Shown here: one piece after another, positions 15,418 to 52,855 of the stretch
Layout: every line of letters starts with the position of its first letter
How positions within the stretch are numbered: position 1 is the stretch's first letter
Assembly: GCA_964057225.1 (NCBI GenBank)
Contig: OZ059897.1
Location: 11,036,001-11,100,000 of the forward strand
Direction of reading: 5' to 3'
DNA length: 64,000 nt
From: Auanema rhodensis
Taxonomy: Eukaryota; Animalia; Nematoda
Made by a program: the position numbers and the translations under genes
Notes under the pieces: generated by a model
The model's input: only the letters and a program-made list of their open reading frames with translations
The model's database searches: none
Told to the model about the DNA's origin: nothing

Positions 15418-15488
15418 TTTGTTGTTTTTAAGATTTTTGAAGTTATTTTTTAACGGGAACGGTGCAATAATACGGTTGTTCTCAATTT

Positions 15489-17735: not shown

Positions 17736-18007
17736 TTTTGTTGTAGATGTAGGAATAATGCTTATATTCCTTTTTTGTTTTCTTTTTTCTTTGTTTGTTT
17801 GGTGATCACAGTATATGTGAACGTAAGGAAATTGAAACCTCTGTTTCTAATTTCAGAGTTTGCTTATTGTTCAAGTCTGTTTGGTGTGACTTGACGTGGA
17901 CTTATGATCGCCACGATTTTTATTAAGTATGTTTTTTGCTCAAACACGCTTGGTTCGAGTTGTATCTCACCTGCCACGCGGGACTTAAAGCGGCTAAGAT
18001 CTAAACT

Positions 18008-29765: not shown

Positions 29766-30129
29766 TAACTGAAAAAATTGAAACTAATTAAAAAATATTT
29801 CATTATATAAAAAATATATATGATATATGTGAGCATTATATAGCATATTTAAACGTAAGGTTCACATACTTAATGATCTGTGCGGGACCATTAAATAAAA
29901 GGCGGCATGAGCGTCCCTGTAAGGCTTACATTTTTTGGTTATTTTCAGGTTACGACATGTAAGGTTTACGTGCACAGGATTACGTTCGTATACATGTTTT
30001 TCAAGAGGAAGAACATTTCAGAGAAAGAGGAATTAAAAAAAAAAGGTTGAGCATAAATCTCACTATACAATGTATAGTTGAAATAGCAAAAAAGGTATGA
30101 CGATGTATTATTTAGATCTAAATTGTTTT

Positions 30130-31038
30130 AGAGGCTTGAGGTATTAAGAATTGGAGATGTAAATTGTTTTAGAGGCTTGAGTTATTGAGAATTGGAGATG
30201 TAGAACAGGCGGGTCAATTGTTAAAACAATTGAAAGAAGTTGACCATTACTGCTTAACTTCCAATATCTTCCTATATTTGCGGATACTATGGTAGCTTAG
30301 AAGAAGGTGAGGCGAATGACGACTACACGATATTAACAAAATTTGGCGACTTTGAAGCATCTCATGTACAAAAATTGTTTAAGCCGGTATGAAAGCCTTA
30401 CATTTATAAACTGTACATTACGTATGGCTTACATATTTTTAGGAACCTGGGTTCATGTTTGCTGAATCATACGCCAATCATTGTCTACTTCATAGCAATT
30501 CTGAGATGGTTACTTGTTTCGAATTCAACGACTTCCCCATACTCATACTCAGAGCCATTAAAACTATTAGAAATGGACAACAAATTTTATTTAATTATAA
30601 TATAACGGGAAAGCAATGTCTGCGATTTGATTTTTATAATGAATGTCCCTGTTCATCGGAACAACCATTAATAAAGGATGTGAGACCCTTCGGTCCTCTA
30701 TCTCAAGAAGGCAAAGAAAAATGGACTAAATACTTTAGTCAATATTTTTTTATATTTTTTATGTTAATTATTCCTTTTCAGAAAGAAATAAAGAAGTTCC
30801 AAGTGCTTCATTAGGAAGCCAATGTTCCACCACTCAAGATTTGGAAATCACGGATGTCGTTATGATTAGTGACCAAACTGACAATGAAATTAATACTCCT
30901 TTTTCGAATAATGATATAGTCGGCGATGATAATACTTCGGAACCAACATCTATTCAATCAGAACCTTCTACTGATCCTGATGGGAACGAGTCAGAATTAG
31001 TCGTCGCTCACAACTCCAGCTTATTGCTACAAGTATAA
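30130..31038 (+). pseudogene. SET-domain (lysine methyltransferase-like) gene, internally rearranged
   Basis: YANHCLLHSN...LILRAIKTIRNGQQILFNY...CPC matches the SET NHxC / GEELxxxY / post-SET pattern. 41-bp tandem duplication at 30121-30202; apparent deletion junction near 30262 relative to 32190-32310. Confidence 0.7.
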
Positions 31039-31179
31039 ATTAAATATTAATCAATCAATTTGATAAAGTGTTCCAGATTATCCCTGATATGCAATTAAAG
31101 ATAACTAGACCGAACTACTACATTGGGAAACTTTGGTGTCCCATCTGTGGACTTCTCAAGAAACAAGGAAGCTATAACT

Positions 31180-32084
31180 GTAACCATGTGTTGGTTATCC
31201 CATCTATCGGATGTCAAAATCCATAAGGCCGAGGAGCATCTGGCACAAAGTAGGGTCGCAGCCACTGCTTGAGCGATATTCTCTTCGAAATGAGTCGACG
31301 TAGGCTTACAGCTGATGGTATGTCGGCTTTCACAACTTCAAAAATTATGGCATAGAAATTAAATTAACAAAAAGCCTACTGATTTTTTTCAAAAAATTCG
31401 TGGGCCAAATCTACCCTATATTCGATCCACACTCCTTCCCAGCATAATCTTATTATATGTGGATTGAAAGATATTTCCTAAATATATGTATTACTTTAGG
31501 TATTACTTTTGATATCTTACTCCAAGTAGCCCTAATCTATTTCCGACTCCATATCTTCCTTTAATCCTCGTAAAGATAGTTGAATCTTTTCCACCGTTAG
31601 GGTTGAGAGGCTGCATCACTACCCTATGGTCAAGATATGGGGAAGCTTGGGGAGGTTGGAGAAATGTTTCCAGAAACTGGACTGTGTGGTGGAGGCTCGA
31701 TGTCTAGAAAAATAATGCTACAACAATTTTGAATAATTTAACATACGCATTGGGCTTTAGGTCGCATTGTATAATTTTCATAAATGTATCTTGTTATGAG
31801 GTACAACATTCTAAGATTGCGAATAATTCGGTAGTGGGGATGTCTAGATTTTAGAGCAATGCAAAAGTTAAATGATTTACATCCTGTTAGTATTTTATCT
31901 ATTTCATTAGAAATTTTAATATTTTTTTTACATTCTATTCCATATAACTGAATAAGCTTAAAAAAATAAATGGTTGGGTAGTTAAAATTTTAAACATACT
32001 TTATCAAATATGGGACGGGTTGCTTTTCAAAAAGGCCTGTACATTTATCTCTTTTAAAATTCCTTCATCGTAATGTCGAAACAT
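31180..32084 (-). pseudogene. 5' half of gene A paralog (A')
   Basis: MFRHYDEGILKEINVQAF...; same intron positions as gene A; +1 frameshift in exon 1; truncated at about 31180. Confidence 0.75.
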
Positions 32085-32138
32085 CCAGCACTGAAAATTA
32101 AAAATACTTAAAAATATACATTTGAACATGGCATAAAA

Positions 32139-32710
32139 AATATAAAAATATAAACCAAAGTCAAAATATAAACCATTAATGATAAAAATATTAAGAATTG
32201 GAGATGTAGAACAGGCGGGTCAATTGTTAAAACAATTGAAAGAAGTTGACCATTACTGCTTAACTTCCAAAAAAGAGACAGCTATATATAATTATTGTCT
32301 AGCAACATGGGTAGGCTTTTTGTGTTTTAATTATTGTCTAGCAACATGGGTAGGCTTTTTGTTAATTTAATTTCTATGCCATAATTTTTGAAGTTGTGAA
32401 AGCCGACATACCATCAGCTGTAAAAATATAAAAATATAAACCAAAGTCAAAATATAAACCATTAATGATAAAAATATTAAGAATTGGAGATGTAGAACAG
32501 GCGGGTCAATTGTTAAAACAATTGAAAGAAGTTGACCATTACTGCTTAACTTCCAAAAAAGAGACAGCTATATATAATTATTGTCTAGCAACATGGGTAG
32601 GCTTTTTGTGTTTTAATTATTGTCTAGCAACATGGGTAAGCTTTTTGTTAATTTAATTTCTATGCCATAATTTTTGAAGTTGTGAAAGCCGACATACCAT
32701 CAGCTGTAAG
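32139..32710 (+). repeat. 286-bp tandem duplication made of SET-gene and gene-A' fragments
   Basis: Near-identical ORFs at 32179 and 32465; contains sequence matching 30184-30262 and the reverse complement of about 31310-31385. Confidence 0.85.
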
Positions 32711-33900
32711 CCTACGTCGACTCATTTCGAAGAGAATATCGCTCAAGCAGTGGCTGCGACCCTACTTTGTGCCAGATGCTCCTCGGCCTTATGGATTTTG
32801 ACATCCGATAGATGGGATAACCAACACATGGTTATTAAGGCTTTTCAGGAAGGCATTGCTGAAACGCTGAAGTTTTCCATGGATGTAAGATTAGGGTTTT
32901 TTGGATATCATAAATTGCGGTTTTTGTAGGATTTTTGCTCAAGTATGGACTTTTCTTTTGATCCAACGGACTATATGAAGATGGAAGCTAGAAAATTAAT
33001 GGATGCAGCCCTAGAAGTAAAAATAAAATTCATGTTTAATTGTTTTTATTTTTTTGTTTTACAGTTTTCCTCCTCCCACCTCCCTACTAACATCGAAAAT
33101 TCTCCTTCACCTAGTGAAGTAAGTTATAACTCTTATTGTAAGCCTTACATTCTTTACAGCCTTCTTCCCGTACTGACAGATCTCCTCCCCCCCTCATGAA
33201 GGAAGTTCATCACCTCATGAAGTAAGTAATATAATTCTTAATGTAAGTCTTACATTCTTTACAGACTTCTTCTCCTCCTGCCGATAGATCTCCTCCTGCT
33301 GACAAATCTCCTCCCCCCCCCCCTCATGAAGTAAGTTATAACTTTTAATGTAAGCCTTACATTCTTTACAGCCTTCTTCCCGTACTGACAGATCTCCTCC
33401 CCCCCTCATGAAGTAAGTAATATAATTCTTAATGTAAGTCTTACATTCTTTACAGACTTCTTCTCCTCCTGCTGACAGATCTCCTCCCCCCCCCCCTCAT
33501 GAAGGAACTTCATTTCCTCATGAAGTAAGTTATAATTCTTAATGTAAGCCTTACATTCTTTACAGACGTTCTCTCCTCGTCAAAAACGATCGCGAATGAG
33601 CTCTGTTCCTCAAAAAAGAGAAACCCCTCTCAAGGTTATTATTCCGTATTCCTAATTCCAGACTTTACATATTATTAAATTACAGTCTTTTATCTATCGA
33701 GAAACTGTTGCTGACGGAGCAACGATATGCCGTTCTATAATGAACGCCTTAAACGTAGATGAAGCGTCCCCATTCCAGGTGCCGCCAGGGCCTAAGGTAT
33801 AATGTATTTTATAATGTATTCAGCTAATTAGTATAAGTTCAGCTGGTAAATATCGATCCCCCCACCTTAAAAAGTTGAACGTCCTCGTTCAAAAACAAAA
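32640..33900 (+). pseudogene. 3' portion of gene A paralog, inverted, with repeated micro-exons
   Basis: CARCSSALW..., DFCSSMDFSFDP..., DGATICRSIM match gene A exons; repeated exon/intron units at 33100-33570; cut off by the Gypsy LTR remnant. Confidence 0.72.
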
Positions 33901-33966
33901 TAAATTAATTCACTTTTTTGTAGACTACATTGGTCTGTAAAATCGACGCGGGAGCATAACGGAACG

Positions 33967-33979
33967 TGGAGGTTCCACC
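33967..33979 (+). promoter_or_regulatory. Primer-binding site, tRNA-Gln type
   Basis: TGGAGGTTCCACC is the complement of the ...GGTGGAACCT-CCA end of eukaryotic tRNA-Gln and follows the LTR remnant directly. Confidence 0.85.
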
Positions 33980-35472
33980 TCGAACTTATAACAATTTTTT
34001 TCCTTCTCTCTAATGTTTGTGTTGTTAATTCATTTTCAAATCTCTTTCATCTCTCTTTTTCTCATACCATCTACTCTATGTCTTAACACAATACGGAGGG
34101 GCCAACAACGTTAAATGGGAACAGAGGCAAGTAATCCTTTTTTTTTTAAAGAAGGATTATACGTTTCGAGATTATTATTTTCCCGTTTGTTCACAAAAAG
34201 TTTTTCGTCTGAACCTTTAAATTTCGTATCCTTGCTTATAACATCTGAAATGCTCTGTTACCCAACCTTGAAGCTTGATGAGGGCTTTAGGCTGAATTAG
34301 TGAACAAATTCACCTAAAGTAATTGTTATTTTGTATTTCCCACGCCTTCTCCTTTTTAAGGATTAATTTTGGCTTCAAGGAAAGAATAACTTCGGTTATA
34401 TCTTTATATTTCGTGGATGAAGTTTGTTTTGCGATCAGGACTATTTTATTTTGCGTTACGATTTCGTTCAGACAAATTTTGCTTCTAACATCCTAAATTT
34501 ATAATCAGTACGCATGAAAAAAAATTACACGGGAAACCTCACCAGAAAGGGAGGATTGTTAATTTATAGATCGCTATAGTCCGAAAAATCCTGTTGAAAA
34601 ATGTTATCTCGAATTTGAATCATGATTAACACAGGTCGTGTTGGCTAAAGCATATCGGTTTGGATTTTCTCCCCTTACTGAATGTCACCTTCCTCATACC
34701 GTTATTGTTGTTCAGAAGCATAAGACTCACGCATTGAACCTTATTCCAACTTTAATACTAGTTCTTGTAATATTTAGCCATTTAACTCTGCTTTTATTTC
34801 AAAATTCGATTTCTGATCACGAAATATCTACATTCATCATTGCGAAACGCTCTTTTGTAAAACTAATATTACGAATCCCATGACTTTTGTTACAACGAAA
34901 CATGCGAGCTACACCAAATGTATTTGAAAACCAGATTGTAAAGAAACAAAAATTATTTTTGGTCACAAAAGAGAAATTGGTGCACATTTATTGTTAAACT
35001 GCTCTTTTATCAAAAGCATGTTACGAATTACACCATAAGTTTTGTTGCAAGATGACACACCACATGGTCGAGAAACTAGTGTAACAAAACATAAGTTTAG
35101 TCAGCATGAGGAAAATGGTTGCATACAAATCAGTAAAATGTGCTGTAATTGAACGAATATTACGAATTACACTAAACGTTTTGTAAAATAACAGCTTGGT
35201 CACCCCAGATGTTTTGTGAATCAGACTTTCAACTACAGAGAAAATACGGAGAGCACCAGAGTCCCGATATCACACAGTAGAAGGCGGATCCATCGCCATT
35301 GGCCAAGGCATCGACCTCATTCTCACAAGTTGTCGATACGACACCGGTCGCTCTCCAAAGCCTTTCTCATTTTGCCTACATCCTCATCCTTATTCACAGC
35401 ATTCTTTAACGTCTCAACATCCCACACGTTACCAAGCACTCAAGGTTTTTTCAAACCAAGAGTTCTAGCAAG

Positions 35473-36912
35473 GTGGCTAAGAGATTCCATTCAGCCGTAC
35501 CTATAAGTACGCATTTCGATTCCCAAGACTCAGCTCCCTTTACCAGAAGTCGAGCTCGAGCTCAAGACGTCGCTATATTAGAAGAGGAGCAGAAAGTCGA
35601 CAAGAAGCCGGATAATTTCCTTATTCCTACTACTGATTCTGTCTCACCTACTGAACAACTAGGCGACCCGGACTACGTACCTACTATAGAAGAAGAACTA
35701 TCAATCATTGTGGAGGAACAAACACCGATCACTCCTAAAAAGGTACGCTCCTCTAATTCTAATAAAAATAAGAAAAATCAAAACATCAGCGACGCTTCTC
35801 AGTCTCTCTCACTAACCGAACCAACCGATTCCCCTTTACTTTCAAAAACTTCTAGGGCGGGTGGGCTTAGTTCTCTTAGAAACATTGTTACTGATCTTTT
35901 TAACCTTTCGCCTAAAGATAAAACTTTCAACACCAAGCGCAAAAGCAGATATTCATCAGTCCCTAACATTAATATCTCACCAATTCAACCACCTGCGCCA
36001 AATACCAGTATTCATCAAACTTCTACTCCCATCTTAACAACAACAGACTCACTTCCTAAGGCACCCAATAGACCTATTCCATCCACGCAAACAACCCCTA
36101 TTTTGGAGACCCCACCAATAACAGGTAGAACGATCAAAATACCATCTACCCGTACGAATAACATTATGACGGAAGCTGTTTCCTCATTACCTGGGGCAGG
36201 GAAAACAACAATCGCGCAAGCCTTACTTTCGCCTTACTGTCCAACTTACGACGGCAGTCGTAACTTCCGTGATTTTACGGGTAAATTCAACTTGTTTGCT
36301 AATGCCATTGGCCTTGTTATCCCTGAAAGGTTAGCACTTCTTCCTTTGCTTCTCAAAAATGAAGCAGCAGAAGAAGCTTACAGACAAGTTCATGAACAAC
36401 TTAAAACAACTGGTTCGTGGAATGATCTGATTAGAGCACTAACATCGAAGCTCTGCCCTGAATATAATCAAGACCCTGCACTTATTAACCTTCAAAACAC
36501 CACGCAAGGGGAATTGACAATTGATGCATACGCCCAAGCATTAAGAACAATGGCATTGAGTGCATTTGCATCTGATGACCCACATAAAGATCAAATACTG
36601 AGATCAACATTCCTCAGAGGACTTAAAAATACTCTAAAACCAGCTGTGATTCGAGCAAAGCCAAAATCCTTCACAGAAGCGATTGAAGCCGCTCGCTGGG
36701 AGGAATCGATAGTGAACCAAACAACAGACACGCAATCGATGTTGGTCAACGCTGTGAACAAAGCACTAGCACCCTTTGCGCGTAATGATGAGAGACGAGA
36801 TAGCCAAACATTTAATCGCAATTATCAACGCGATAACCAAATGATAAGAAATAATCAAAATTATCAAAATAATCAAAATTATCAAAATACTCAAAATAAT
36901 CAAAATTATTAA
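35473..36912 (+). CDS. gag: Gypsy Gag (start uncertain; frame continues past a single TAA into env-pol)
   Basis: PTYDGSRNF...LQNTTQGELTIDAYAQAL...FLRGL capsid motifs. First in-frame ATG is 36166. N/Q/R-rich tail with no zinc knuckle. Confidence 0.85.
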   Translation: MAKRFHSAVPISTHFDSQDSAPFTRSRARAQDVAILEEEQKVDKKPDNFLIPTTDSVSPTEQLGDPDYVPTIEEELSIIVEEQTPITPKKVRSSNSNKNKKNQNISDASQSLSLTEPTDSPLLSKTSRAGGLSSLRNIVTDLFNLSPKDKTFNTKRKSRYSSVPNINISPIQPPAPNTSIHQTSTPILTTTDSLPKAPNRPIPSTQTTPILETPPITGRTIKIPSTRTNNIMTEAVSSLPGAGKTTIAQALLSPYCPTYDGSRNFRDFTGKFNLFANAIGLVIPERLALLPLLLKNEAAEEAYRQVHEQLKTTGSWNDLIRALTSKLCPEYNQDPALINLQNTTQGELTIDAYAQALRTMALSAFASDDPHKDQILRSTFLRGLKNTLKPAVIRAKPKSFTEAIEAARWEESIVNQTTDTQSMLVNAVNKALAPFARNDERRDSQTFNRNYQRDNQMIRNNQNYQNNQNYQNTQNNQNY

Positions 36913-37191
36913 AATTATCAAAAAAATAAAAACTTTTCTAATTTCAATAATAATCGAAACCGTTACGGTTCTTTCGCTAATAATAATCGCCGTACAAATT
37001 ATAACGAACAAGATAATAGGCAATCGAGTTCTGATTGGCATCAAAGAAATTATAATTTTCGTCATAACAACCAACGAGGTAGATTCAATAACAACAACGG
37101 ACAAAGAAGAGTTCAATTCAAAAATCAAAGAGACAACTCAAGAGGAAGAGATAGAAGCTCAACAAGAATAAACTCTGTCACCCTTTCGCCT

Positions 37192-40100
37192 TTGACGCTC
37201 ACAGTTATCATGGCAATAACAGCAGCAATATTCTTGCCCTGTGCATCTACATATCAAATCTGTACAAGAGCAACAGGAGGCGCATTACTTATGCCACCAA
37301 CAATCAGAAAATGCAGATTAACAGAGAAAAACCATGTGCTACGTACAGAAGTTCATCTATACACAAGAAATCACACAGCACACGAATGGGATGCGTGGCG
37401 TTGTTCAGAGGAAGTACACAAGTTATGCGTACGAGACCTGCTATTCCTCCGCGATACGAACAGAACAATAAATAGAATACAGCCTATAGGAGAGCGCGAG
37501 TGCAGACAGGCGATCCGCGATCGCAAGTGGAATAACATAGAACTGCAACGCATTGATAGTATCACCCAAGCAACTCCGGAGCCCTCCTATGACCCAGCGC
37601 GCGCGTTCAACCGCGACGCGTGCGAGGAGCGGTCACGTCTAATATTAGAGCGCGGAGTCATGACCCGTATGCCTGACGATACAATATTGTCAAACTTAAT
37701 ATTGAACACGGAAGGATGCAATGCACATCATGGTAATTGTGAATCAAGTACATCAATAATAATATGGGACCCACAAACCACTGGTTCATGTTGTAATTAT
37801 ATCGATATGCATACATATGACGCTATCATTAGTCAAGATACTATTTTAATCCCTAGTACACAATCGGCACTTATTCTTTCGAGCAAACCAACTCCGAAAC
37901 CTATTTCTTCTTGCTTCAGGCAGCCAGCGTTCTATACGACATCAGGAAATTATATCATTCTTCCTAAATTTCCAAACGACAACAATATAACCACCCTTAT
38001 TGAAAGAGAGTTCAAAAAGCTGCCGTTTAAAAGACCAAAACGTGCAGTCACCGAAGGATGTTCTTTCCCGCTGGATCAAGATCGGATCAACGAAGTTGAA
38101 GATTATGAAACAGTATTGCTTCACGTTTGTCCATATACTTTCCTAAGACCATTAATGAGTAATCCCGGTATTACTTCAATTATTCCTATAATCAAAGGAA
38201 GACGTTTAGTAGATCCAACATACTCTCTAAAGGCATGGATAACATCACATAAAGAAAAATTCGAATTTTTCTTCAGAATTCAAATAAATGAACATTCTGT
38301 TCGACATTTTCTCAAGCAATACGATTTCAGTGATAAAGAAGAAGCTCTGCTATATTATATAGCACAAAGAGAATTAGCCATTACTACAAAGGCAGCAATA
38401 TCATACTTAACATCTGAACAGCTTCTCGAACAAATATCAGATCGTTTGACAGTAATCGAATTCGATGAAATCATAAGGAAGAAACAAGGTTCATATCGCG
38501 AACGAATTGAAAGCATAGCTCTCAATTTAACCAATACACCAGTGATAATTGAAGAAGGACTGACAATTCCATCACGACAAGAAGTCCTACAAACGTTCAT
38601 ACAAATGCCACCAATAAGGAAACGTATACTAACTGACGAGGAAGAGAAGAAAAGCGAATTCATTAAGGCAACGATCAATTTACTAAGAGAACTAAAAACC
38701 CTCACAACAGTACGATGGAATAAAACTGCAGCATTTATTGATGACAGAAAATTTATAAAATTGCCAGCATCACGACAATTCATGCCAAATACAGATAAAC
38801 TATTTTATGACAGGAAGAATAATTATGGAATACCGATCGGTCCACACCCTAAGCTGATCAAGCCCAGCAATCTTTCAAAGAAATTATTATTGGAAATATT
38901 TTTACCCCTGCTCAATAATGTAAAAACACCTTATACATCGAGTAGGATAACACAAGAACAACTTCAAATCTTAATGGCAGAGAAAAATGAAACAAATTTT
39001 CGGCAAATCGCAACGCGGACATCCAGCGTCGCTGCAGGCGGCGCGGCTAGCGGCGCGGTTGTGACACCAGTCCAACCTTTGATCGAACAGAAGGGAACAA
39101 TCCAATCAGTCACCACAATACAGCCGCAAATAACGAACAATCCTCACACAAATGCAACAACCACCACAAGAGCACCATCATGGAGGCAACAGCCATCAAC
39201 AACGGCGCCTCACACGACCGCTGCGACAACAGCACGCACAACAACATCAACCGCTCGTTCGCCAACAACAACAAGAAGCTATGCCATATACAAAGACGCA
39301 CAGATTCCAAAAATACAAGAGACAACCGAAGCCTCTCCAACATTGATTCGAAAAAACCGAGCTTCCTCAACACCATCAGTAGAAACCTCAAATTTAGTGG
39401 AAGCAAATGCGAGATACATAGCAACGAAAATTGACTCGGTACAAGAGTTTCGTCAAAATATATCGAACAAAATAGCCCAAGATCATTTACAGTATGCTAC
39501 TACAATGATCCAAGAGGAATTGCAGAAACATTTTGAAGAATCATACGAATCGATTTGCGAGATACAAAATCGGTATCTGGAATTATGGAAATCAATTCTA
39601 CAAATTGAACCAACAATCGCAATGCGAACAATACTGGGAAGAGAAGATATAGCCGCACGGTTTGTAGGCAATGAAATTTTGCATATACATGTATGCCCTA
39701 CAGTGCTAGAGAAAACCATTTATCACAATCACACCGTAAATGGCACATGCTATCTCGAAACCCCAGTCTGGACACAAGACGGACAGTTACTGTTTGCAGC
39801 ACCCGGATCCAAGGATCTTTTACCTCATGGTAAAGAAATAAGCTGTGATCACGTACCAACAGATATCTGGTCTAGCGAAGGTGAATGGAAAGGAATTAAT
39901 GGGACTGCAGACGTCAATCTTGTATCAATGTGGGACGGACTTCATCACGAAAAAATAACACTATTAAAATTCACCGGAGCTCACTTATACACTAATTTAT
40001 CGTCTCGGGTATACTCAATGACCACAGCCATAGCTTACGGTGCGAGTTTAGCATCGATTCGTCAGAATCACGTTCTTCACACAATTCACAATGATCCAAA

Positions 40101-43100
40101 GATATCAGCTACATTCAGTGTACTAAAGAAAAGTAGCGACTACATATCGAAAGCTCAAGAATTCACCAAGAGCACATGGAAGTCATTCATCGATACAATT
40201 GCAGGAACGATTGAGCGAACACTAATAACGATCGGTGCAATTACATTATTTACCATCATACTCTTTGTGATAGGTTTCATTGTAAAGATCTATTTCTTCA
40301 AACCAGTAGGCATACCAGTTATGCATATTGCACTCAAAGATCACGACAGTGATCTACCAACATACGAAGAAACTTTGGAATTAGTTAGTCATCCGGACCA
40401 ACCGATTCCAAGACACATAATGAAACAATACTATCCATCAATGCTCACATTCATACCAATCGCACTACCATTAGTTTGCTCGATTTCCAAAAAGAAAGAT
40501 CAAGCGCTACCACTTCTATGGATGACTGTTAACGATAGACTGATCCTAACTTTATGGGACTCAGGTTCGTCCGTCAGTTACATAAGAATATCGACACTAC
40601 ACTACTTAGCTTTGAATGACTTTGTTAAGAAGAATACATTAAGAGCAACAACAGCGAACGGATCAGAATTTGTATTCATTGGTACTATCGACTTAACCGT
40701 CGAAATAGCCGGTTACGAAATCGACCATACATTCTTCATATCAGACGACAAAGACTGTCCATCGCCAGCGTTGATTGGATTAGATTTCATGAAAACACTT
40801 GACTGTCAAAACATTGGCATGAAACTAAGACCATACAAAAGAACACTGGAAATTGGAAATCATGTAGTATCTTTGGCTAGCGGAATTAACGGGGATATCA
40901 ACAGGATATCAAAAACTGTTAATTTGATAACCTTGGAACCGCGGAGTCTACTTCCACGACAAGTTTTTAATTTTCAAGTCCAATTAGAGAACCCAATCGG
41001 AGAAGACTTAATCGCTATGATTAAACCAAACGACAATACACCTCTCTCACCTCGATACGACACAGCATTTCGCGATGTTAACTCCATCAATATCCAATTC
41101 CGGAACAATTCTAAAGAATTCATAGAAATACCGGCCGGCACTGTGATTGCAGAAGCCGAAATAGGATCTATACCGGACTATGAAATCTTCTCAACAGAAC
41201 AACAGTACGACTATATTCCACCAGAAGCAGACTGGGAAGGCAAATTACCTCACTTCCCGGGTGATTTCATGAAAGAACTTGACCTAAAAGAGGCTGATCT
41301 TACGCAACGACAAAAAGACGAACTAAGAAACATCATTCGTCAACGTAAGAAGGCATTCCTCAATAAAGATAAAAAGATAGGATTGTTCAAAGGACCAGTA
41401 GAACACAAGATACCACTACGAACGGATATGGATATGCCAAAGCCACGAATTTCACGTATACCTCTCGGGAAACAAGAAGAGGTAGAAAGAAAAGTCCAAG
41501 AAATGCTCGAGCAAGGGATAATAGAACGTTCGACATCTTTGTTCAACAGCCCTGTCGTTCTCGTTAAGAAAAAAGACGAAACATTCCGTTTCGTTACAGA
41601 TTTCCGAGCCTTAAATAACGTTACAAGAAAACAAACATATGTGATTCCTAACATCTCTGATATCATTGACTTAGCTGCTGGATCACAACACTTTTCTAAT
41701 TTTGATCTTGTTTCTGGCTTTTTCCAAATACCATTATTGAAGAAGGATAGACCACTCACATCCTTTACCACCAATAGTGGGACTTATCAATACAGGAGAA
41801 TGCCTATGGGATTATGTGGTGCGCCACATACCTTTCAAACAGCCGTGAGATATCTCCAAAGTAAATGTAAATGCCGACTATTTGTCTATTTGGTCGATTT
41901 ACTAGTCATATCAGACAGCGCAGAACAACACCTCGAAGACATCAAAGAAGTATTACTCGCTGTAGAAAGACTAGGATTTAAGATTAAACTCAAGAAATGT
42001 TCATTTGCAAGACCAGAAGTGAAATTTCTTGGACTCATTGTCGGAAGAGACGGAGTTAAGCCCGATCAACAGAAAGTTTCCGCCATCCGCGATTACCCTG
42101 CTCCTCAAACACCCACAGGAGTAAGAGCATTCTTAGGAATGGTCGGATTCTTTAGAAAATTTATTAAAGATTTTGCGCATATAGCAAGTCCGCTGTATGA
42201 CCTTACTAAGCTAGACGCAGACTTCAATTGGACTAGCGAATGTCAACGTTCACTAGATAAGCTAAAGGAACGACTAATCGAAGCACCGGTACTGAAACCA
42301 CCACGATCAGACCGAACTTTCATCATTGAAAGTGATGGCAGCAACATCGCCATAGGCGCAGTATTACTGCAGCCCGAAGATCCAAACGAACCATTCAAGA
42401 ACTTACATCCAATTGCTTTCGCAAGTAGGAAATTAGTAAAAGCAGAACGTAACTATGCTCCCATAGAGATAGAAGCCTTAGGCTTAGTTTACGCTCTAGC
42501 ACAGTTTCGAACAAACATACTTGGATCACATTCAATTTGCATCACCGATCATCGCCCATTGACAAGCTTACTAACTAGAAGAGACCTATTTGGAAGACTA
42601 GCAAAGTTCCAATTGGTCATACAGGAATACGATATTGAGATCAAATATCGAGAAGGCAGATTAAACAAAGTCTGTGACGCACTCTCTAGATACATTGGAG
42701 ATGAAGCTAACGATCCAAAGACGTCGAACAAGAAACAAAAGACGAATTCGAAAGAGAAAATTGAGACACAACAAGTAAATGTTGTGAAGTTACCAGAATT
42801 CAGCTCAATCCAACAAAATACTCCTTGGATCAAGAGAACAATAGCTGAGATTGAATACAGAACGAAGAAAAATATGATTCAAAATCATCGTTATTGTGTT
42901 ATAAACAACTTACTCTACACAAAACCAAGCGTCAAAAGACCTCATCCAGCGTTAATATTGCCATCGGATAGTGATATAATTAACAAAATCATTGAAGAAT
43001 TTCATGAAGACCCAACAATCGGGGCGCATCAAGGCATCAACAAAACAAAAGAAGCCATATTACGAAGATTTTCCTGGACTAACATGCAGAACGACATAGC

Positions 43101-44205
43101 AAAATACGTAAAACAGTGCATCAAATGTGCACAACGAAAGAAAGATCCTCATGCTATGACCGTACAACCAATGGGTCAATTTAACATACCAACAAAACCA
43201 TTTGAGAGAATACATATGGATATCATGGGACCATTCCCAACATCAAAAAGGAACAACAGCTATGTCCTCACAATACAAGACTCTTTCTCCAAATGGGCTA
43301 CAACTATCGCCATACCAACAATTGTTAGTGAAGTTGTCATTGATAGATTCCTCAGAAACTTTGTATATGTCTATGGACCACCGAACCGCTTAATAACAGA
43401 CCGCGGTTCCAACTTCCTATCAAGGAAATTTGAAGACATGTGCGAAAAACTCGGTATCAAACATGAATCAACACTCCCACATCAGAAGAATTCCAATGGA
43501 CAAGTAGAAAGACTTCATAGAACGTTAGAAGAAGGACTCACACATTATCTCAACGAAGATGTCACTGATTGGGACATGTTTTTGCCAAAAATTACCTTTG
43601 CATTGAACACCACAACGCATGCAACCACAGGAATATCACCATACGTTGTACTATTCGGGAAAGAAAGCCGTTTGAGATTGGATAAAGATTTATACCCCGA
43701 AACAACTGAACCAAAGGAAATTTCAAAGGAGATTGAAAATATTGAGAAAATCCGAAGCAAACAGAAAACAATCATTCAAGAAAATTTGGAAAAGCATCAA
43801 GAATTAGCAAAAAAGAAACATGATGCTCGATTACGCACTCACGAAAGAGATATACAAGAAGGAGACTGCGTTATGTTAGCTGTGAAAATGCACAAGCCAG
43901 GACAAAAGCTTCGGAAAGCTTATGATGGACCATTTGAAGTTATTAATGTGAAGGGAAACATGGTTCAAATCAAAAACCTTTTCGGAAAGATCCAAGACGT
44001 TCACAAGGACAATCTCAAATTATTTAATCGAGAAACAGATGACGGAATCGCACATAAGCCCAGTACACGTACAGACAGCTCAGACGATGACAGCGATATT
44101 GAAATCATAGAGGTTATCAACGGAAACAACAACGATGAAGACTCTTATGACGAACCAGAAGACCTTTCGGATACAAATTGGCTACCATCAAGAAAAAACC
44201 ATTAA
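37192..44205 (+). CDS. pol: Env-Pol polyprotein: signal peptide, class III (gB-like) fusion glycoprotein, TM, protease, RT (YLVD), RNase H, integrase
   Basis: Hydrophobic signal then YQIC; KRPKR at 38029-38043; gB-like helix region about 39484-39850; TM 40219-40299; LWDSGS; YRRMPMGL; ESDGS; H...HQG...CIKC, MDIMGP, TDRGSNF, GQVER, GPF. Confidence 0.9.
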   Translation: MTLTVIMAITAAIFLPCASTYQICTRATGGALLMPPTIRKCRLTEKNHVLRTEVHLYTRNHTAHEWDAWRCSEEVHKLCVRDLLFLRDTNRTINRIQPIGERECRQAIRDRKWNNIELQRIDSITQATPEPSYDPARAFNRDACEERSRLILERGVMTRMPDDTILSNLILNTEGCNAHHGNCESSTSIIIWDPQTTGSCCNYIDMHTYDAIISQDTILIPSTQSALILSSKPTPKPISSCFRQPAFYTTSGNYIILPKFPNDNNITTLIEREFKKLPFKRPKRAVTEGCSFPLDQDRINEVEDYETVLLHVCPYTFLRPLMSNPGITSIIPIIKGRRLVDPTYSLKAWITSHKEKFEFFFRIQINEHSVRHFLKQYDFSDKEEALLYYIAQRELAITTKAAISYLTSEQLLEQISDRLTVIEFDEIIRKKQGSYRERIESIALNLTNTPVIIEEGLTIPSRQEVLQTFIQMPPIRKRILTDEEEKKSEFIKATINLLRELKTLTTVRWNKTAAFIDDRKFIKLPASRQFMPNTDKLFYDRKNNYGIPIGPHPKLIKPSNLSKKLLLEIFLPLLNNVKTPYTSSRITQEQLQILMAEKNETNFRQIATRTSSVAAGGAASGAVVTPVQPLIEQKGTIQSVTTIQPQITNNPHTNATTTTRAPSWRQQPSTTAPHTTAATTARTTTSTARSPTTTRSYAIYKDAQIPKIQETTEASPTLIRKNRASSTPSVETSNLVEANARYIATKIDSVQEFRQNISNKIAQDHLQYATTMIQEELQKHFEESYESICEIQNRYLELWKSILQIEPTIAMRTILGREDIAARFVGNEILHIHVCPTVLEKTIYHNHTVNGTCYLETPVWTQDGQLLFAAPGSKDLLPHGKEISCDHVPTDIWSSEGEWKGINGTADVNLVSMWDGLHHEKITLLKFTGAHLYTNLSSRVYSMTTAIAYGASLASIRQNHVLHTIHNDPKISATFSVLKKSSDYISKAQEFTKSTWKSFIDTIAGTIERTLITIGAITLFTIILFVIGFIVKIYFFKPVGIPVMHIALKDHDSDLPTYEETLELVSHPDQPIPRHIMKQYYPSMLTFIPIALPLVCSISKKKDQALPLLWMTVNDRLILTLWDSGSSVSYIRISTLHYLALNDFVKKNTLRATTANGSEFVFIGTIDLTVEIAGYEIDHTFFISDDKDCPSPALIGLDFMKTLDCQNIGMKLRPYKRTLEIGNHVVSLASGINGDINRISKTVNLITLEPRSLLPRQVFNFQVQLENPIGEDLIAMIKPNDNTPLSPRYDTAFRDVNSINIQFRNNSKEFIEIPAGTVIAEAEIGSIPDYEIFSTEQQYDYIPPEADWEGKLPHFPGDFMKELDLKEADLTQRQKDELRNIIRQRKKAFLNKDKKIGLFKGPVEHKIPLRTDMDMPKPRISRIPLGKQEEVERKVQEMLEQGIIERSTSLFNSPVVLVKKKDETFRFVTDFRALNNVTRKQTYVIPNISDIIDLAAGSQHFSNFDLVSGFFQIPLLKKDRPLTSFTTNSGTYQYRRMPMGLCGAPHTFQTAVRYLQSKCKCRLFVYLVDLLVISDSAEQHLEDIKEVLLAVERLGFKIKLKKCSFARPEVKFLGLIVGRDGVKPDQQKVSAIRDYPAPQTPTGVRAFLGMVGFFRKFIKDFAHIASPLYDLTKLDADFNWTSECQRSLDKLKERLIEAPVLKPPRSDRTFIIESDGSNIAIGAVLLQPEDPNEPFKNLHPIAFASRKLVKAERNYAPIEIEALGLVYALAQFRTNILGSHSICITDHRPLTSLLTRRDLFGRLAKFQLVIQEYDIEIKYREGRLNKVCDALSRYIGDEANDPKTSNKKQKTNSKEKIETQQVNVVKLPEFSSIQQNTPWIKRTIAEIEYRTKKNMIQNHRYCVINNLLYTKPSVKRPHPALILPSDSDIINKIIEEFHEDPTIGAHQGINKTKEAILRRFSWTNMQNDIAKYVKQCIKCAQRKKDPHAMTVQPMGQFNIPTKPFERIHMDIMGPFPTSKRNNSYVLTIQDSFSKWATTIAIPTIVSEVVIDRFLRNFVYVYGPPNRLITDRGSNFLSRKFEDMCEKLGIKHESTLPHQKNSNGQVERLHRTLEEGLTHYLNEDVTDWDMFLPKITFALNTTTHATTGISPYVVLFGKESRLRLDKDLYPETTEPKEISKEIENIEKIRSKQKTIIQENLEKHQELAKKKHDARLRTHERDIQEGDCVMLAVKMHKPGQKLRKAYDGPFEVINVKGNMVQIKNLFGKIQDVHKDNLKLFNRETDDGIAHKPSTRTDSSDDDSDIEIIEVINGNNNDEDSYDEPEDLSDTNWLPSRKNH

Positions 44206-44898
44206 CTCATGAGATTTTATTGTAAATTGTTTTGTAATAACTTTCTTTAAAGTAATACTAGAACACAAATTTTGTAACGAGTCCTCTAAAACAAGTCACT
44301 CTCAAGTCAAAAAGTAAACTAGAGCATAATGAACACGGGAAATGTGAGAAGATAATTCTTTATCATATAGTTCGAACCTTCCTAATTTCAACTAACTTCC
44401 CCATACTAGATGAGATGAAAAATGAAAGACATAGTTTGCAACAATATCTGAGCAACAGTCTTCACTTGAGTAATCAATGACTCAATTTGGAAGTTATTTG
44501 GTATTACGCAAAACTTTTCTTTTTTTTTTTCTAAACTCACACAAATTGAAACAAACAACCGAGCTCTAGCAAAAAAAATTGTTAACTTTTTGTCTACACT
44601 TGTTAGAGCGTTATGCTTAAAAACTTTTTTTTTATTATTTTATAAGCACGTTCGCCAATAAAACATAGTCTAGTATTCGTTAAAGAGGGTTAAAACTTTC
44701 ATAATTTGGTTAAAAATTTTTTTAATTCTTTTCAGATACTGATGTTTTATATTGTATTATGTTCATATTATAAGAATTTTACGTAAAATATTGTATTGTA
44801 ACATGTACTTTAATACACACATTAACCCTTCTGCTACAGTTAATCAAGTCAAAACTTTTGGTTGTCGCGAGGACGCGACATAAACTCGAAAAAGGGCA

Positions 44899-45256
44899 CG
44901 TTCCATTCGAATGATCAATGCATTACATTCATATGACGAAGCTGTAGCAGGCGGGATAGAGTCAGAGAATGCGAGACTGAGAGAAGACGACCCGCCCTTT
45001 TCCATATTACAACACTTCAGCTTTGCCTCAGGGACGATCATGGATGGTTGGTCGTTCTCTCTCTGTTCTCTATTAGTGTAACCTTTACTTAGTTATATGT
45101 ATCTTATTGTAATCACGTAGATATAATAAACCAATCTTTCTCGAGTCTTATGTTTATCCTTATGCTCCATGTTTAACCGCTACATCTGGAATACTACCAC
45201 GCTCATTTTGTAGACTACATTGGTCTGTAAGATCGACGCGGGAGCATAACGGAACG
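44899..45256 (+). repeat. 3' LTR of Gypsy element (about 358 bp, CGTTCC...GGAACG)
   Basis: Inverted 6-bp termini, internal AATAAA, preceded by a purine tract; the right end is fixed by the PBS-adjacent 5' copy. Confidence 0.8.
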
Positions 45257-45301
45257 AAAGCAAGCAATAATTTTATAGCATTTAAATTTCAAAACAAAAA
45301 A

Positions 45302-45373
45302 TGCCCAAGACAGGAATCGAACCTGTGTCGCCACGGCCACAACGTGGAGTACTAACCACTATACTATTTGGGC
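45302..45373 (-). tRNA. tRNA-His(GTG), inverted, G7A acceptor-stem variant (same variant at 45710 and 46042 on +)
   Basis: Intact A and B boxes; GCCCAAA/CTTGGGC mismatch. Confidence 0.75.
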
Positions 45374-46373
45374 CAATATAACAACAACTTAACAAAGTTA
45401 GTGTGTTCATTGTTACTGAAATGAACTAAGATTCAAAACCAAAAATGCCCAAGACAGGAATCGAACGTGTGTCGCCACCGCCAGACCTTTGTACTTGTAC
45501 ACCGAATACATGTACGATTTGTCTACAATTGTGTGTCGATTCCTGTTTTTGATCACGTTTAATTAACTGTATTGTTTTCAAAAATAAAGACAAAATTCAA
45601 TTTCTGTTCATTGAATTAGAATTTTCATGTTGTCACACAGAAATTGAAGAATCTTAGTTCATTTCAGTAACAGTGAACACACTAACTTTGTTAAGTTGTT
45701 GTAATATTGGCCCAAATAGTATAGTGGTTAGTACTCCACGTTGTGGCCGTGGCGACACAGGTTCGATTCCTGTCTTGGGCACTTTTTGTTTTGAAATTTA
45801 AATGCTATAAAATTATTGCTTGCTTGTCATGTTAGATTTGTTTAATTTAAATACTCATTCAAGTTCTAACAATTTCTGATTTAATCACGTTTAATTAACT
45901 GTATTGTTTTCAAAAACAAAGACATATTTCAATTTCTGTTCATTGAATTAGAATTTTCATGTTGTCACACAGAAATTGAAGAATCTTAGTTCATTTCCGT
46001 AACAGTGAACACACTAACTTTGTTAAGTTGTTGTAATATTGGCCCAAATAGTATAGTGGTTAGTACTCCACGTTGTGGCCGTGGCGACACAGGTTCGATT
46101 CCTGTCTTGGGCACTTTTTGTTTTGAAATTTAAATGCTATAAAATTATTGCTTGCTTGTCATGTTAGATTTGTTTAATTTAAATACTCATTCAAGTTATA
46201 ACAATTTTTGATGTAATCACGTTTAATTAACTGTATTGTTTTCAAAAACAAAGACATATTTCAATTTCTGTTCATTGAATTAGAATTTTCATGTTGTCAC
46301 ACAGAAATTGAAGAATCTTAGTTCATTTCAGTAACAGTGAACACACTAACTTTGTTTAGTTGTTTTGATATCG

Positions 46374-46445
46374 GCCCAAGTAGTATAGTGGTTAGTACTC
46401 CACGTTGTTGCGGTGGCGACACAGGTTCGATTCCTGTCTTGGGCA
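46374..46445 (+). tRNA. tRNA-His body with GTT anticodon (also 46706-46777), probably defective
   Basis: CCACG-TTGTTGC-GGTGG; A box, B box and acceptor stem are intact in this copy. Confidence 0.6.
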
Positions 46446-47039
46446 CTTTTTGTTTTGAAATTTAAATGCTATAAAATTATTGCTTGCTTGTCATGTTAGA
46501 TTTGTTTAATTTAAATACTCATTCAAGTTATATCAATTTTTGATGTAATCACGTTTAATTAACTGTATTGTTTTCAAAAACAAAGACATATTTCAATTTC
46601 TGTTCATTGAATTAGAATTTTCATGTTGTCACACAGAAATTGAAGAATCTTAGTTCATTTCAGTAACAGTGAACACACTAACTTTGTTTAGTTGTTGTAA
46701 TATCGGCCCAAGTAGTATAGAGGTTAGTACTCCACGTTGTTGCGGTGGCGACACAGATTCGATTCCTGTCTTGGGCATTTTTGTTTTGAAATTTAAATGC
46801 TATAAAATTATTGCTTGCTTGTCATGTTAGATTTCTCTAATTTGAATACTTATTCAAGTTCTAACAATTTTTGATGTAATCACGTTTAATTAACTGTATT
46901 GTTTTCAAAAACAAAGATATATTTCAATTTCTGTTCATTGAATTAGAATTTTCATGTTGTCACACAGAAATTGAAGAATCTTAGTTCATTTCAGTAACAG
47001 TGGACACACTAACTTTGTTTAGTTGTTGTAATATCGGCG

Positions 47040-48694: not shown

Positions 48695-51600
48695 ATTGGA
48701 AATGAACAGGAAAATTATTGACGAATATATCGACAACGATATCATTGAAGGAGTTCCCTTTGAAACTTCCAACAATACTCATAATTCTGATATTATATGT
48801 CATTATATTCCACATCATGGGGTATGGAATACAAACAAGCCGAATAAACCTTTACGAGTTGTATTCGATGCTTCAGCTAAAACTGAGGGTAAATTATCCC
48901 TTAACGACATACTATATACTGGAAAAAGTTTTGTGAACAATATTTTCAACATTCTAATTGCTTCAAGAATAAAACCAATCATTATTACTTGTGTTATTCA
49001 ATCAGCCTTTTTACAAGTAGGCTTACAGAAGCAACATCGGGATCTTTGCCGTTTCTTTTAGGTAAAGGATTCTCAAGGAAATTGTAACCCAAGTAATACT
49101 AAGGTTTTTCGATTCAAACGCATACCATTTGGATTGACTGCCTCACCTAGCATACTAAACATGAGTGTAAATTGGTATTTAAGCTCTTTGAATACTGACT
49201 TATCAGATGAAATATTAAATACATTATATGTAGATAATATTCTATTATTTGCTGATAGTATAGATGAAGCTCAACAGAAATGTTCACTTACACAACAATT
49301 ATTTCAAAATATGTCGATGCATGTTCGTCAATTTGCATCGAATAAGCCAGAAGCTCTTCAGCACCTTCATAAAGATAATATTCTTTCTGATTGTCCACTG
49401 AAAATTCTTGGAGTACCTCATAATGCTCTAAGTGATTCCCTTTCAGTTCGATTCAATATACCGGAACTCTCTACAGTAACCAAACGAAACGCATTACAAC
49501 AATTACATTCAGTTTATGATCCTTTGGGTATAACAAATCCATTAATTGTACCCTTGAAGGTTATTCTTAGAGATGTTTTTGCAGTTAAAACAGAATGGGA
49601 TGATACTATACCTTCTGAATTATCAGCCTCTTGGACATCAACAATTAACGAGATTAATTATGCTAAGGTTACTGTACCTCGGGTACTATCACCATCTATT
49701 GAAGAAGGTACATTATGGGTCTTTGCTGACGCTAGTTCAACCGCGTTAGCTGTGTGTGCTTACATACAGACTAACAACAAAATGAGTTCTATTCTAGCAG
49801 GTAAAAGCCGCTTATCTCCTAAAACACCAATTACAATTCCACGCATGGAACTCTTAGCTATTCGATTAGCTATGAGACTTTCTCACACAATATTAATGGA
49901 ATTACCATGTAAAAAACTAAATATTGTAAGTGATAGCATCATTGCGTTATCATGGATTTCAAGAAATAAGCAATTACCTGACTTCATAGCAAAACAAGTT
50001 CAAAATGTACAACATATGACCCGTGTATTTGAAGAACATTCGATTAATGTTCAATTTTACCATGTTACTACGGATTATAATCCGGCTGACATTGGTTCAC
50101 GAGGAGCCAATAAATATCAACTTCAGGAATCTATGTGGCTTCTTGGACCACAGTGGATTCTTAACAGAACCGTTCAAGCTTTAACACCATATGGTTCCTT
50201 GCAAGTGATGTATGTTCCACCTGTATCATTACTTATAGCTCAAGCTATATCTGTACTTTTGGAACATAACCTAGCTTATCATAACGGTCATTTTGCAACT
50301 TTACGTTTGTTAGCACGTTTGGCTAAAATTATAAAAATATGGCATACAAAAACATTTAAAAATCGAAATGGACATAAATTACGGAATATTTCACAAATAT
50401 CAACATCATATCCCGTTTTAACAACTGATTTGAAGATAATACGTACTATTTTAATTCGACAAGCTCAAGATCATCTCATTATTGATGATTTACGACGACA
50501 ATATCCTGGTTATCATTTTTATCATGATGATAACGAGATACTTCGAGTAAGAAACCGATTACAAAATTCTTTACTATCCTATGATACAAAAAACCCAAAA
50601 AACCAAAAAGAATTTTTGATCACACATCTTCGTCAAACTTATTTTATTGCTCGCGCTGCAGCAATTATAAAACAAACTTTAAAGAAATGTCATTTATGCA
50701 ATAAATATCAATCTTTACCATATGGCACCCCTGATACGCCTTCATTGCCTAAAGATAGAGTGATATTAACTAAACCATTTCTTAACACTGGTTGCGACTT
50801 ATTTGGACCTATTATGCTTAAAAGTGGACATAAGGTCTATGTATATCTTTTTACTTGCTTAACCATACGTGCCATTCATCTTGAAATGGTCTATGATCAA
50901 ACAGCGACTTCATTTATGAACGCTTTCACTCGTTTCATAGCCCGACGAGGTTTACCAACCACAATGCGAAGTGATTGTGGGGGTAATTTTATACTCGGAG
51001 CTCAATTAATTGAGACAATACAAAAATCAGCTGAATTTAATTTCACCCCAGCTGATATTGTAGTCCATCTAGCCAAAAATAACATAAATTGGCTCTTTAA
51101 CACACCCAAGTCACCATGGAATGGAGGTTCTTGGGAAAGAATGGTGGGAATTACTAAAAATGCAATGAAAAAAGCAATACAAAGAAATAAATTAACATTT
51201 GATGAATTATTAACTTTAATTGTCAAAATTGAAGCAGTCATTAACACAAGGCCTTTAACACATCCAGATCCAAATAATATAAATCACGTACCTATTCGTC
51301 CTGTCGATTTCATTTTGCCTGGTCTTGTTTCTCTACCGGATGATTGTGGTTCTCGAGTTTATAATAATTCCATTGATATTCTTGTAATACAAAACGTTGA
51401 ACAAGCATTAGAAACTTTACAACTTACTTCTTATGCAGCTACGATGTTTTGGGATAAATTTCAAACAGAATATTTGATATATATTCGTGATATATACAAA
51501 CATTCCCGAAAACAACCTTCAGCAAAAGCCAATAAACCTAATATTGGTGAAATTGTAGTTATACATAACGATAACTTACCTCGTGGTCAATGGAAACTTG

Positions 51601-51778
51601 GTCGAATCACAAAACTTATAAGTAGTTCTGATGGAATCATTCGTACAGCTAAAGTTTTCACTCCAGCTAGAAACAACATATCACGTTCCTTAAATCATCT
51701 ATATTCACTTGAATTACGAAGTGTTTTACCTGATATGACATCAATTCCTCGATCTACTCCTTCCGAAGACGAAATGAA
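48695..51778 (+). pseudogene. pol: BEL/Pao pol fragment of a different family (RT-RH-IN), no LTRs
   Basis: YIPHHGV, LRVVFDAS, YVDN, VFADAS, CDLFGP, GGSWERMV. In-frame TAG at 49059; integrase HH segment deleted near 50595. Confidence 0.9.
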
Positions 51779-52680
51779 AAAAAAAATTGGTGTCTATTAA
51801 ACGGTATAAAAGTAAATACCTCTAAATCTAAAGTAATGATTATATCTAGTACTACTACATCAAGATTGAACACAATTTTCAAACTTGGCGACATCTCGTT
51901 AGCCACAGTATCAACATACAAAGATCTTGGTGTATGTACAGACTATAATCTTTCCTTCAATAGCCATATAAATAGAATATCTAACATTGCTGCTCACAAA
52001 TGTCGTGTTATCTTGCGTTGTTTTTACTCAAGATCACCAACCTTGATGTTTAAACTGTTTTGCTGTTATATTAGGCCTATATTGGAATATGCCTCAGTTG
52101 TATGGTCTCCTCAAAACAACAAAGATAAAGCACGCATTGAGTCTGTACAAAAAAAAATTCTTAAACGCTATTTTTAAGAGAGCCGCAATAGCTTTGGAAT
52201 ACAAAAACCAGCTATTGTTTCTTGGAGCTAAGGAACTATCTTTTAGAAGATTGTTAATTGATCTAGTTTTTTAACATAATCAGATAACCAAAAACATTCC
52301 AGAAAACAGCCTTAATTTTTTTACTGTCAAGCACTACGCTCATTCACTTCGTAGACACCTATGGAATGTTGAATATCCTGATCTTTGGAAAAGCGAAACA
52401 AGAACTGGAATTGAATACAGAGCTATTCAAACCTGGAACACTCTACCTGAAAACATCGTTCAACTGAAAAACACCGCCAGCTTCAAAAAACATCTATCTA
52501 TTATTTTAAATGATTTTTAACCTGTTCCTTGTTAATGTAACTTGAAATCTTGTTCATGTATATATTTTTCTTTCTATTACTAGCATTTTGCCTCACTGCA
52601 TGTTATGGTTAGATAGTTTCCTAGTTTACTTCTGAGACCTGTTACTACGTATCGAATCCTATAGACATTAGTCATATGGA
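51779..52680 (+). mobile_element. 5'-truncated CR1-like non-LTR retrotransposon (LINE) relic
   Basis: YKDLGV, YIRPILEYASVVWSP, IESVQK, WNTLPENIV.....FKKHL; frameshifts and stops; 3' UTR from about 52520. Confidence 0.82.
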
Positions 52681-52855
52681 TAAAAATCGTGGCAACCATT
52701 AGTCCACGTCAAGTCACACCAAAAAGACTTGAACCATAAGCAAACTCTGCAGACAGAAACAGAGATTCACTATCACATATACTGTGATCACCGAACAAAC
52801 AAAAAAAAGAGAAAGTAAAAGGAATATAAGCATTATTCCTACATCTACGACAAAA

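Follow-up and report, generated by a model that had tools for sequence, protein, structure and literature searches.

The element and its reading frame

The window analysed in this study is a stretch of 64,000 nt from the nematode Auanema rhodensis (contig OZ059897.1, positions 11,036,001 to 11,100,000 of the forward strand), and it holds a retrotransposon of about 11.3 kb, measured from the end of one long terminal repeat (LTR) to the end of the other, which is almost certainly a nematode gag-env-pol element of the Ty3/gypsy group. The features of the element are listed in Table 1. Read from stop to stop, its plus-strand frame consists of 35410-36912 (500 aa) and 36913-44205 (2430 aa), which are split only by the TAA at 36910-36912. 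An earlier note on this DNA had claimed as much for a gag open reading frame (ORF) and an ORF of 2337 aa, and this is confirmed; the starts given there, 35473 and 37192, are GTG and TTG codons, that is, start calls of the bacterial style rather than true starts. The open stretch has its first in-frame ATG at 36166, and no start was identified for the 252 open codons before it.

Table 1. Features of the Ty3/gypsy element, with positions counted from the first letter of the window
Feature	Position	Strand	Evidence
5' LTR remnant, last 51 bp; remainder replaced by unrelated sequence	33916..33966	+	50/51 bases identical to 45206-45256
tRNA-Gln primer-binding site, 12 nt, directly 3' of the LTR remnant	33967..33978	+
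Gag-Env-Pol reading frame, 2931 codons, one interruption	35410..44205	+
Stop-free S/T/P-rich stretch, 252 codons, 5' of the first in-frame ATG (36166)	35410..36165	+
Capsid (Gag)	36328..36729	+	Pfam Retrotrans_gag 1.4e-6, Ty3_capsid 6.2e-6
N/Q/R-rich basic Gag tail, likely RNA-binding	36787..37179	+	sequence; aligned with tail of Auanema P0002
Single in-frame TAA, inside an N/Q-rich tract of 9-nt repeats	36910..36912	+
Internal signal segment, predicted signal-peptidase site before residue 615	37192..37251	+	hydropathy 2.05
Env ectodomain, about 990 aa; class III fusion glycoprotein of the gB / Monjiviricetes type	37252..40218	+	Pfam, gB matches, model
Furin-type R-x-K-R, the sole one in the frame	38032..38043	+	P0002 has one at the aligned place
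Helical insert, about 310 aa, confined to a subgroup of relatives	38047..39009	+
T-rich, predicted disordered (mucin-like) stretch	38998..39384	+	pLDDT <50, model residues 583-711
Env transmembrane helix	40219..40299	+	hydropathy 2.66
Predicted cytosolic Env tail / linker to protease; L-P-x-Y at 40354-40365	40300..40506	+
Aspartic protease	40525..40794	+	Pfam gag-asp_proteas 5.7e-7
Reverse transcriptase	41563..42039	+	Pfam RVT_1 1.3e-27
RNase H	42229..42630	+	Pfam RT_RNaseH_2, RT_RNaseH; 1.3e-27
Integrase zinc finger and core	42970..43479	+	Pfam Integrase_H2C2 4.7e-17, rve 1.9e-15
Polypurine tract, 2 nt 5' of the inferred LTR start	44888..44896	+	sequence
3' LTR, 358 bp, 5' border inferred; AATAAA at 45125	44899..45256	+

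The Pfam scan together with hydropathy bore out the domain order that the earlier note had read from the letters, namely capsid, basic tail, signal, glycoprotein, transmembrane (TM) helix, protease (PR), reverse transcriptase (RT), RNase H (RH) and integrase (IN). In Gag, the match to Retrotrans_gag is above the cut-off (28.8 versus 24.1 bits) and that to Ty3_capsid is below it (26.2 versus 29.1 bits), and a zinc knuckle is absent from the basic tail. The order PR-RT-RH-IN in the scanned frame is of the Ty3/gypsy type, as had been claimed. The Pao domains Peptidase_A17, DUF1759 and DUF5641 were not found by Pfam in the element; they are present in the neighbouring element at 9814-17846. By the same domain order, an Env placed after the integrase is not the arrangement here. 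The frame contains three in-phase slippery-like heptamers, all of which are within env.

The Env ectodomain, which carries 13 N-glycosylation sequons and 17 cysteines, matched the Pfam families Monjiviricetes_fusion (9e-13) and, below the cut-off, Glycoprotein_B (1.4e-8), and herpesvirus glycoprotein B (gB) was matched by sequence as well (best E 0.0024). A structure model of Env built with 31 sequences reached a predicted local distance difference test score (pLDDT) of 73.4 and a predicted template modelling score (pTM) of 0.48; in Foldseek, herpesvirus gB came out on top (E 2.6e-10; global TM-scores low, at 0.14/0.22). The model runs from a beta-rich first domain through a confident helical block and a disordered T-rich stretch to a long core helix. 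The helical block corresponds to an insert that begins directly after the R-x-K-R site and is common to six other proteins, and the mucin-like stretch that follows has a minimal R-x-x-R site (39349-39360) close to its end. Between its two conserved halves, Env has a gap of 460 residues in the window copy and in P0002, a related Auanema protein described below; in other relatives this gap ranges from 15 to 522 residues. Folded alone, the insert gave a pLDDT of 72.0 and a pTM of 0.70. It had no Pfam family (best DUF1216, E 0.0068), no Foldseek match among viral models (best E 0.11), no clear match in 48,161 solved chains (best VIA-align Z 3.8) and no usable match in Atlas. This lack of a match does not show that the fold is new.

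The copy in the window is decayed, because it has a stop in gag and has lost most of its 5' LTR; its RT active-site motif at 41887-41898 is degenerate too. The earlier note mentions neither this motif nor the loss in the 5' LTR. Both the TAA and the altered RT motif most likely arose as damage in this copy alone, and it would not be able to move on its own.

The stretch is contained in sequencing runs from three studies (11 of the 14 rows listed), and four runs were compared. The region from gag to the Env TM helix (36496-40438) is bridged by X3 record 12, that from Env to PR (38652-41209) by X1 record 5, and 38415-41733 by X5 records 22-23; no single contig in the four runs covers the whole element. 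In the gag repeat region around the TAA, contigs of three runs showed 27 gap letters, a multiple of three. Two joints were also found, one from 36521 to 43566 in all four runs, which represents an internally deleted derivative without env and most of pol, and one from 38690 to 41180 in two of the four. Both remove PR too, so they are deletion derivatives and not env-skipping forms. The 36521-43566 derivative is a candidate non-autonomous form.

Relatives and published elements

A homologue scan of 1.84 billion representatives gave 350 matches with E values no higher than 0.001; the best 150 of them, together with P0002, were examined (151 proteins). Env was found in 138 of them and Env plus a pol domain in 60; Env came first in 57 of these 60, which is not an unbiased frequency, as the query consisted of Env, TM and PR and favours Env-before-PR matches. 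Sister copies that lack env or carry it after IN had been named in the earlier note as the pattern that would speak against the layout, and this comparison did not refute it. All 27 proteins with both Gag and Env have Gag first. Gag, Env and Pol stand in one protein in 16 cases, seven of them continuing through RT and IN. The three proteins with Env last, and six further long ones with a terminal Env, are all of the BEL/Pao type (Peptidase_A17 in 9/9). Species names were available for 11 of the 20 relatives looked up, all of them nematodes, and Caenorhabditis, Acrobeloides, Aphelenchus and Auanema are among those named.

One of the relatives is P0002 (Auanema sp. JU1783 according to its source), which was the only protein matched in two word-seeded searches. 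Within 1666 aa and without a stop, it reaches from the end of the capsid through tail, signal, Env, TM and PR to the start of RT. Its identity to the window copy is 45% across the 786 residues that lead from the capsid into Env, and 52% from the Env core to PR. The contig on which it lies is 5045 nt long, so that an intron could take up no more than about 44 nt. Gag, Env and Pol are continuous in P0002, as they are in 15 other proteins, and the window copy is one frame throughout, with one TAA. A tree of RT-RNase H was built from the 28 rows in which 150 or more RT residues could be aligned, restricted to env-bearing relatives and with no outgroup, reference or published elements. In it the window copy fell in a clade of six rows (support 99/97) with P0005 of C. 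japonica and P0018 of C. nigoni, both Env-before-PR; its RT groups with nematode elements of the gag-env-pol order.

The earlier note knew of no described family with this layout, which does not hold. Chary and Hayashi (eLife 2026, RP108449, PMC13524379) described errantiviruses of Nematoda, Bryozoa and Platyhelminthes with the order GAG-ENV-POL and an HSV/gB-type ENV (HSV, herpes simplex virus), credited the flipped ENV/POL in nematodes to Sacco et al. 2022, reported that GAG-ENV-POL elements are not monophyletic, and stated that the gB-type ectodomains are flanked by two transmembrane domains. Supplementary file 1 of that article lists 36 nematode elements, eight of them with a tRNA-Gln primer; none of the 36 rows is from Auanema, and the 12-nt primer site of the window copy is identical to that of two, Clat_errantivirus_4 and Ctro_errantivirus_1, being the reverse complement of the tRNA-Gln end given for both. 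With these nematode elements the window element shares the order, the gB-type Env, the Ty3/gypsy pol, the size and the tRNA-Gln primer, but the window copy is not intact, and only a subgroup has the long helical insert. In Env domain I, about 60 of about 206 positions match Clat_errantivirus_4 (group Nematoda_C1) when counted by eye. The gag-env-pol elements of planarians and other flatworms in the same source (PMC13524379) have the same order and the same class of Env and belong to another host phylum. The non-canonical nematode endogenous retroviruses of Sacco et al. 2022 reportedly have a Metavirus-type pol and an RNA-virus-like glycoprotein before pol. We concluded that the layout is already published and that the window copy is a further, decayed member of a published family. 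Polyprotein processing and packaging are not treated in the text of PMC13524379, as judged by word search, and a literature search aimed at late domains, signal peptidase and polyproteins in Ty3/gypsy found no publication.

Three other comparisons are of use. The nematode elements that reportedly go by the name NERV (Sacco et al. 2022) are said to have one continuous gag-env-pro-pol frame; small or helicase accessory frames, which some of them are said to carry, were not found in 33967-36200 of the window. The env-bearing BEL/Pao elements of nematodes, which include Atlas, Cer7/13 and Tas, have in common with the window element a single long frame that includes Env, and some have the same gB-type Env; they differ in their Pao-type pol and in an Env that follows the integrase, neither of which is found in the window element. 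Finally, the flavivirus and hepacivirus polyprotein has a cytosolic capsid, an internal signal, a lumenal glycoprotein and cytosolic enzymes. The flavivirus-like topology suggested earlier for the window element stands in so far as the prediction of two membrane segments is conserved in relatives; the rest is analogy, a likeness in predicted topology without homology, as the window Env is a class III fusogen and that of flaviviruses class II, the window element has a reverse transcriptase and not an RNA polymerase, and it has one membrane passage after Env.

Predicted membrane topology and the proposed packaging of Pol

Mean hydropathy was scanned in 19-residue windows over the 2931-residue frame. 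It exceeded 2.0 in two windows only, the signal-like 37192-37248 and 40225-40281; the latter peak falls inside 40219-40299, where the TM helix had been placed before. Weaker hydrophobic windows were seen in the capsid (1.58) and in the Env tail (1.52). A single TM helix between the Env core and pol is present in 50 of 55 proteins, the window copy included, while four have none and one has two. Among the 42 of 44 tails used for tail statistics (the two longer than 160 aa were excluded), the first 20 residues carry a net positive charge in 38. In all 25 Gag-Env proteins, again counting the window copy, Env comes after a hydrophobic segment, with a mean hydropathy of at least 2.0 in 21. Hydropathy, charge and sequons lead to a predicted topology, conserved across relatives, that would keep Gag and Pol in the cytosol and put Env in the lumen; Pol would stay attached to the tail of Env until released by PR.

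Short motifs in the 42 tails were compared with shuffled sequences. PT/SAP occurs in seven tails versus 0.17 expected, a count reached by none of 2000 shuffles, and the tails bearing it belong to at least two RT clades (P0005, P0064). L/P-P-x-Y was rejected as a family-wide late domain (three tails versus 1.27 expected; 259 of 2000 shuffles reach it), and the Y-x-x-hydrophobic sorting motif is not enriched (25 tails versus 25.4 expected). The pattern V/I-N/H-x-V/I/L is present in 30 tails, where 2.3 would be expected; among ectodomain windows 16 of 1909 contain it, and among RT-RH windows none of 514. In the frame of the window copy it has five sites, none in the Env ectodomain: one after the capsid, one before the signal segment, one between PR and RT, and two between RNase H and IN. 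These may be candidate PR cleavage sites at the borders of the cytosolic domains. Such a motif directly before the signal segment was dismissed as a general feature, being found in only 5 of 25 proteins.

Taken together, the element is almost certainly a decayed Ty3/gypsy endogenous retrovirus with one gag-env-pro-pol frame, the polyprotein of which would likely thread the membrane of the endoplasmic reticulum (ER) twice and leave Pol on the inner tail of Env, and it is probable that Pol would be packaged by way of this tail, as the earlier note had suggested. The proposed course is as follows. Gag would be synthesised in the cytosol; the hydrophobic segment after it would direct Env into the ER lumen and be cut by signal peptidase; the single TM helix would then halt transfer, so that PR-RT-RH-IN remain cytosolic. 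Furin would cleave Env after its first beta domain. Gag would assemble beneath a membrane rich in Env, and Pol would enter the particle as a fusion with the Env tail and not as Gag-Pol. Sites resembling V/I-N-x-V/I/L that lie behind the capsid, ahead of the signal segment, within the Env tail and from one enzyme to the next may be cut by PR, and short motifs in the tail (PT/SAP in some relatives, L/P-P-x-Y in the window copy) may recruit the budding machinery.

A number of points weigh against this proposal. It is a prediction from sequence. One frame would yield Gag, Env and Pol at 1:1:1, and excess Gag would need some further route. The weak hydrophobic stretch in the Env tail lies directly before PR (1.52, and 1.61 in P0002); were it to span the membrane, Pol would end up on the lumenal side. 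The L/P-P-x-Y form found in the window copy and in P0002 is the one not enriched in tails, and the window copy's own Env tail is without V/I-N/H-x-V/I/L, a pattern which was, moreover, picked after the tails had been inspected. The related sequences in the motif counts are not independent, and the score given for the signal segment is the highest of 55 positions, taken without a shuffle control. To these may be added the bias of the scan query given above and the fact that gene models make up many of the database proteins, so that a stop might be concealed by an intron.

A further-reaching version is held only tentatively, and we think it somewhat unlikely: a third route of particle building, in which the Env tail would serve as the tether of Pol and the carrier of late domains, both normally jobs of Gag, and in which, in a subgroup, furin would release, out of the middle of the fusogen, a folded helical domain of 35 kDa without known structural relative, possibly a receptor-binding cap or a secreted factor.

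Of the other explanations, the one that survives best, though it is unlikely, is that Pol comes mainly from a spliced or internally started RNA which skips env, giving ordinary Gag-Pol or free Pol, while the fused frame serves mostly for Gag and Env. Such an RNA would resolve the 1:1:1 stoichiometry, and Cer1 of C. elegans, which uses splicing, offers a parallel. However, there is no GT[AG]AG donor in 35410-40600, and the sole TTTCAG acceptor is inside env with none between env and PR, which, for these consensus words, is weak evidence against such a splice. In 42 of 44 proteins Env and PR moreover share one frame and are separated by a tail no longer than 160 aa, and the DNA joints 36521-43566 and 38690-41180, with their loss of PR, are not the forms that this explanation calls for.

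It is less likely again that Env acts as an internal membrane scaffold, with particles formed at ER membranes and moving within the cell and no fusion from cell to cell. The interruption of 460 residues between the conserved Env halves would fit this, and the entry mechanism of GAG-ENV-POL elements is called unknown in the discussion of PMC13524379. Nevertheless, relatives have conserved the cysteine pattern, the furin site and both halves of the fusogen, which are modelled with high confidence, and PT/SAP is enriched in the tails.

Programmed read-through of the TAA at 36910, setting a high ratio of Gag to Env-Pol as in gammaretroviruses, is in our view very improbable. This codon sits between the capsid and Env, and read-through would fix the stoichiometry; but it lies in the middle of the repeat tract whose length varies between contigs, the basic tail would be truncated by it, no stop interrupts Gag, Env and Pol in P0002 and 15 other proteins, and the window copy has further damage in its RT motif and 5' LTR. 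A one-off chimera (an env piece inserted in a gypsy element) or an assembly error might be suspected in a repeat-rich tRNA array full of nested elements, env-bearing BEL/Pao ones included, where no contig spans the whole element, but is refuted by the bridging of the junctions in runs of three studies, by the env of the neighbours, which is Phlebovirus_G2 (class II) and not gB-type, and by the same order in other nematode genera and in print (PMC13524379).

Element ends, surroundings and significance

The border of the 3' LTR is indicated by the polypurine tract, a 6-bp terminal inverted pair and the AATAAA, and past 45256 the flanks are unlike in two X1 contigs (agreement 0.53). The LTR ends read CG...CG, the inverted 6-bp pair, with the same ending in both LTR copies (33961-33966, 44899-45256); the usual LTR ends are TG...CA. 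The 51-bp remnant of the 5' LTR, with 50 of 51 bases identical, is too short for dating. The region upstream of it, 27859-33597, contains inverted short tandem repeats about 5 kb apart that flank internally duplicated sequence, and is possibly another transposon, into or beside which the 5' LTR was lost. A second LTR of the same family at 62691 was considered and rejected, as it rests on a 6-bp match, and matches of this kind are no commoner in the window than chance predicts (15 found, 12.5 expected).

The element lies among a tandem array of 332-bp units with one tRNA-His(GTG) gene each (1-8633, 18362-25757, 45258-47038 and 61496-62690). There are 56 tRNA calls in the window, two of them with an Asn-type anticodon. 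Very large tRNA arrays have been reported for Auanema rhodense (bioRxiv 10.64898/2026.08.27.747507). The 3' end of the element (45256/45257) is 45 nt past the 3' end of an opposite-strand tRNA-His gene, and an unrelated sequence with the same first six bases, containing a 227-aa open frame, begins 51 nt past another tRNA-His gene (62690/62691). A preference for insertion downstream of tRNA genes could be hinted at here, but with only two cases, in an array so dense in tRNA genes, nothing is proved.

BEL/Pao elements are found at 9814-17846 on the minus strand and at 52733-59945 and 49062-51800 on the plus strand. The first is Atlas-like, with an Env of the phlebovirus G2 type (class II) after the integrase, and the second is a broken copy, 84-96% identical; two unrelated envelope classes are thus present within one window. 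A 381-aa open frame at 25936-27081 on the minus strand is presumably a mariner transposase, by its motifs.

Since the layout is in print, its discovery value is little, and what remains is a mechanism that can be tested. The single TM helix, the positive tail, the PT/SAP enrichment and the candidate protease sites are concrete places at which to do so, and the helical insert is an uncharacterised domain within a class III fusogen. If Pol rides on the Env tail, the packaging of the enzymes would be decoupled from Gag-Pol fusion and recoding, and every enzyme-bearing particle would have to be enveloped.

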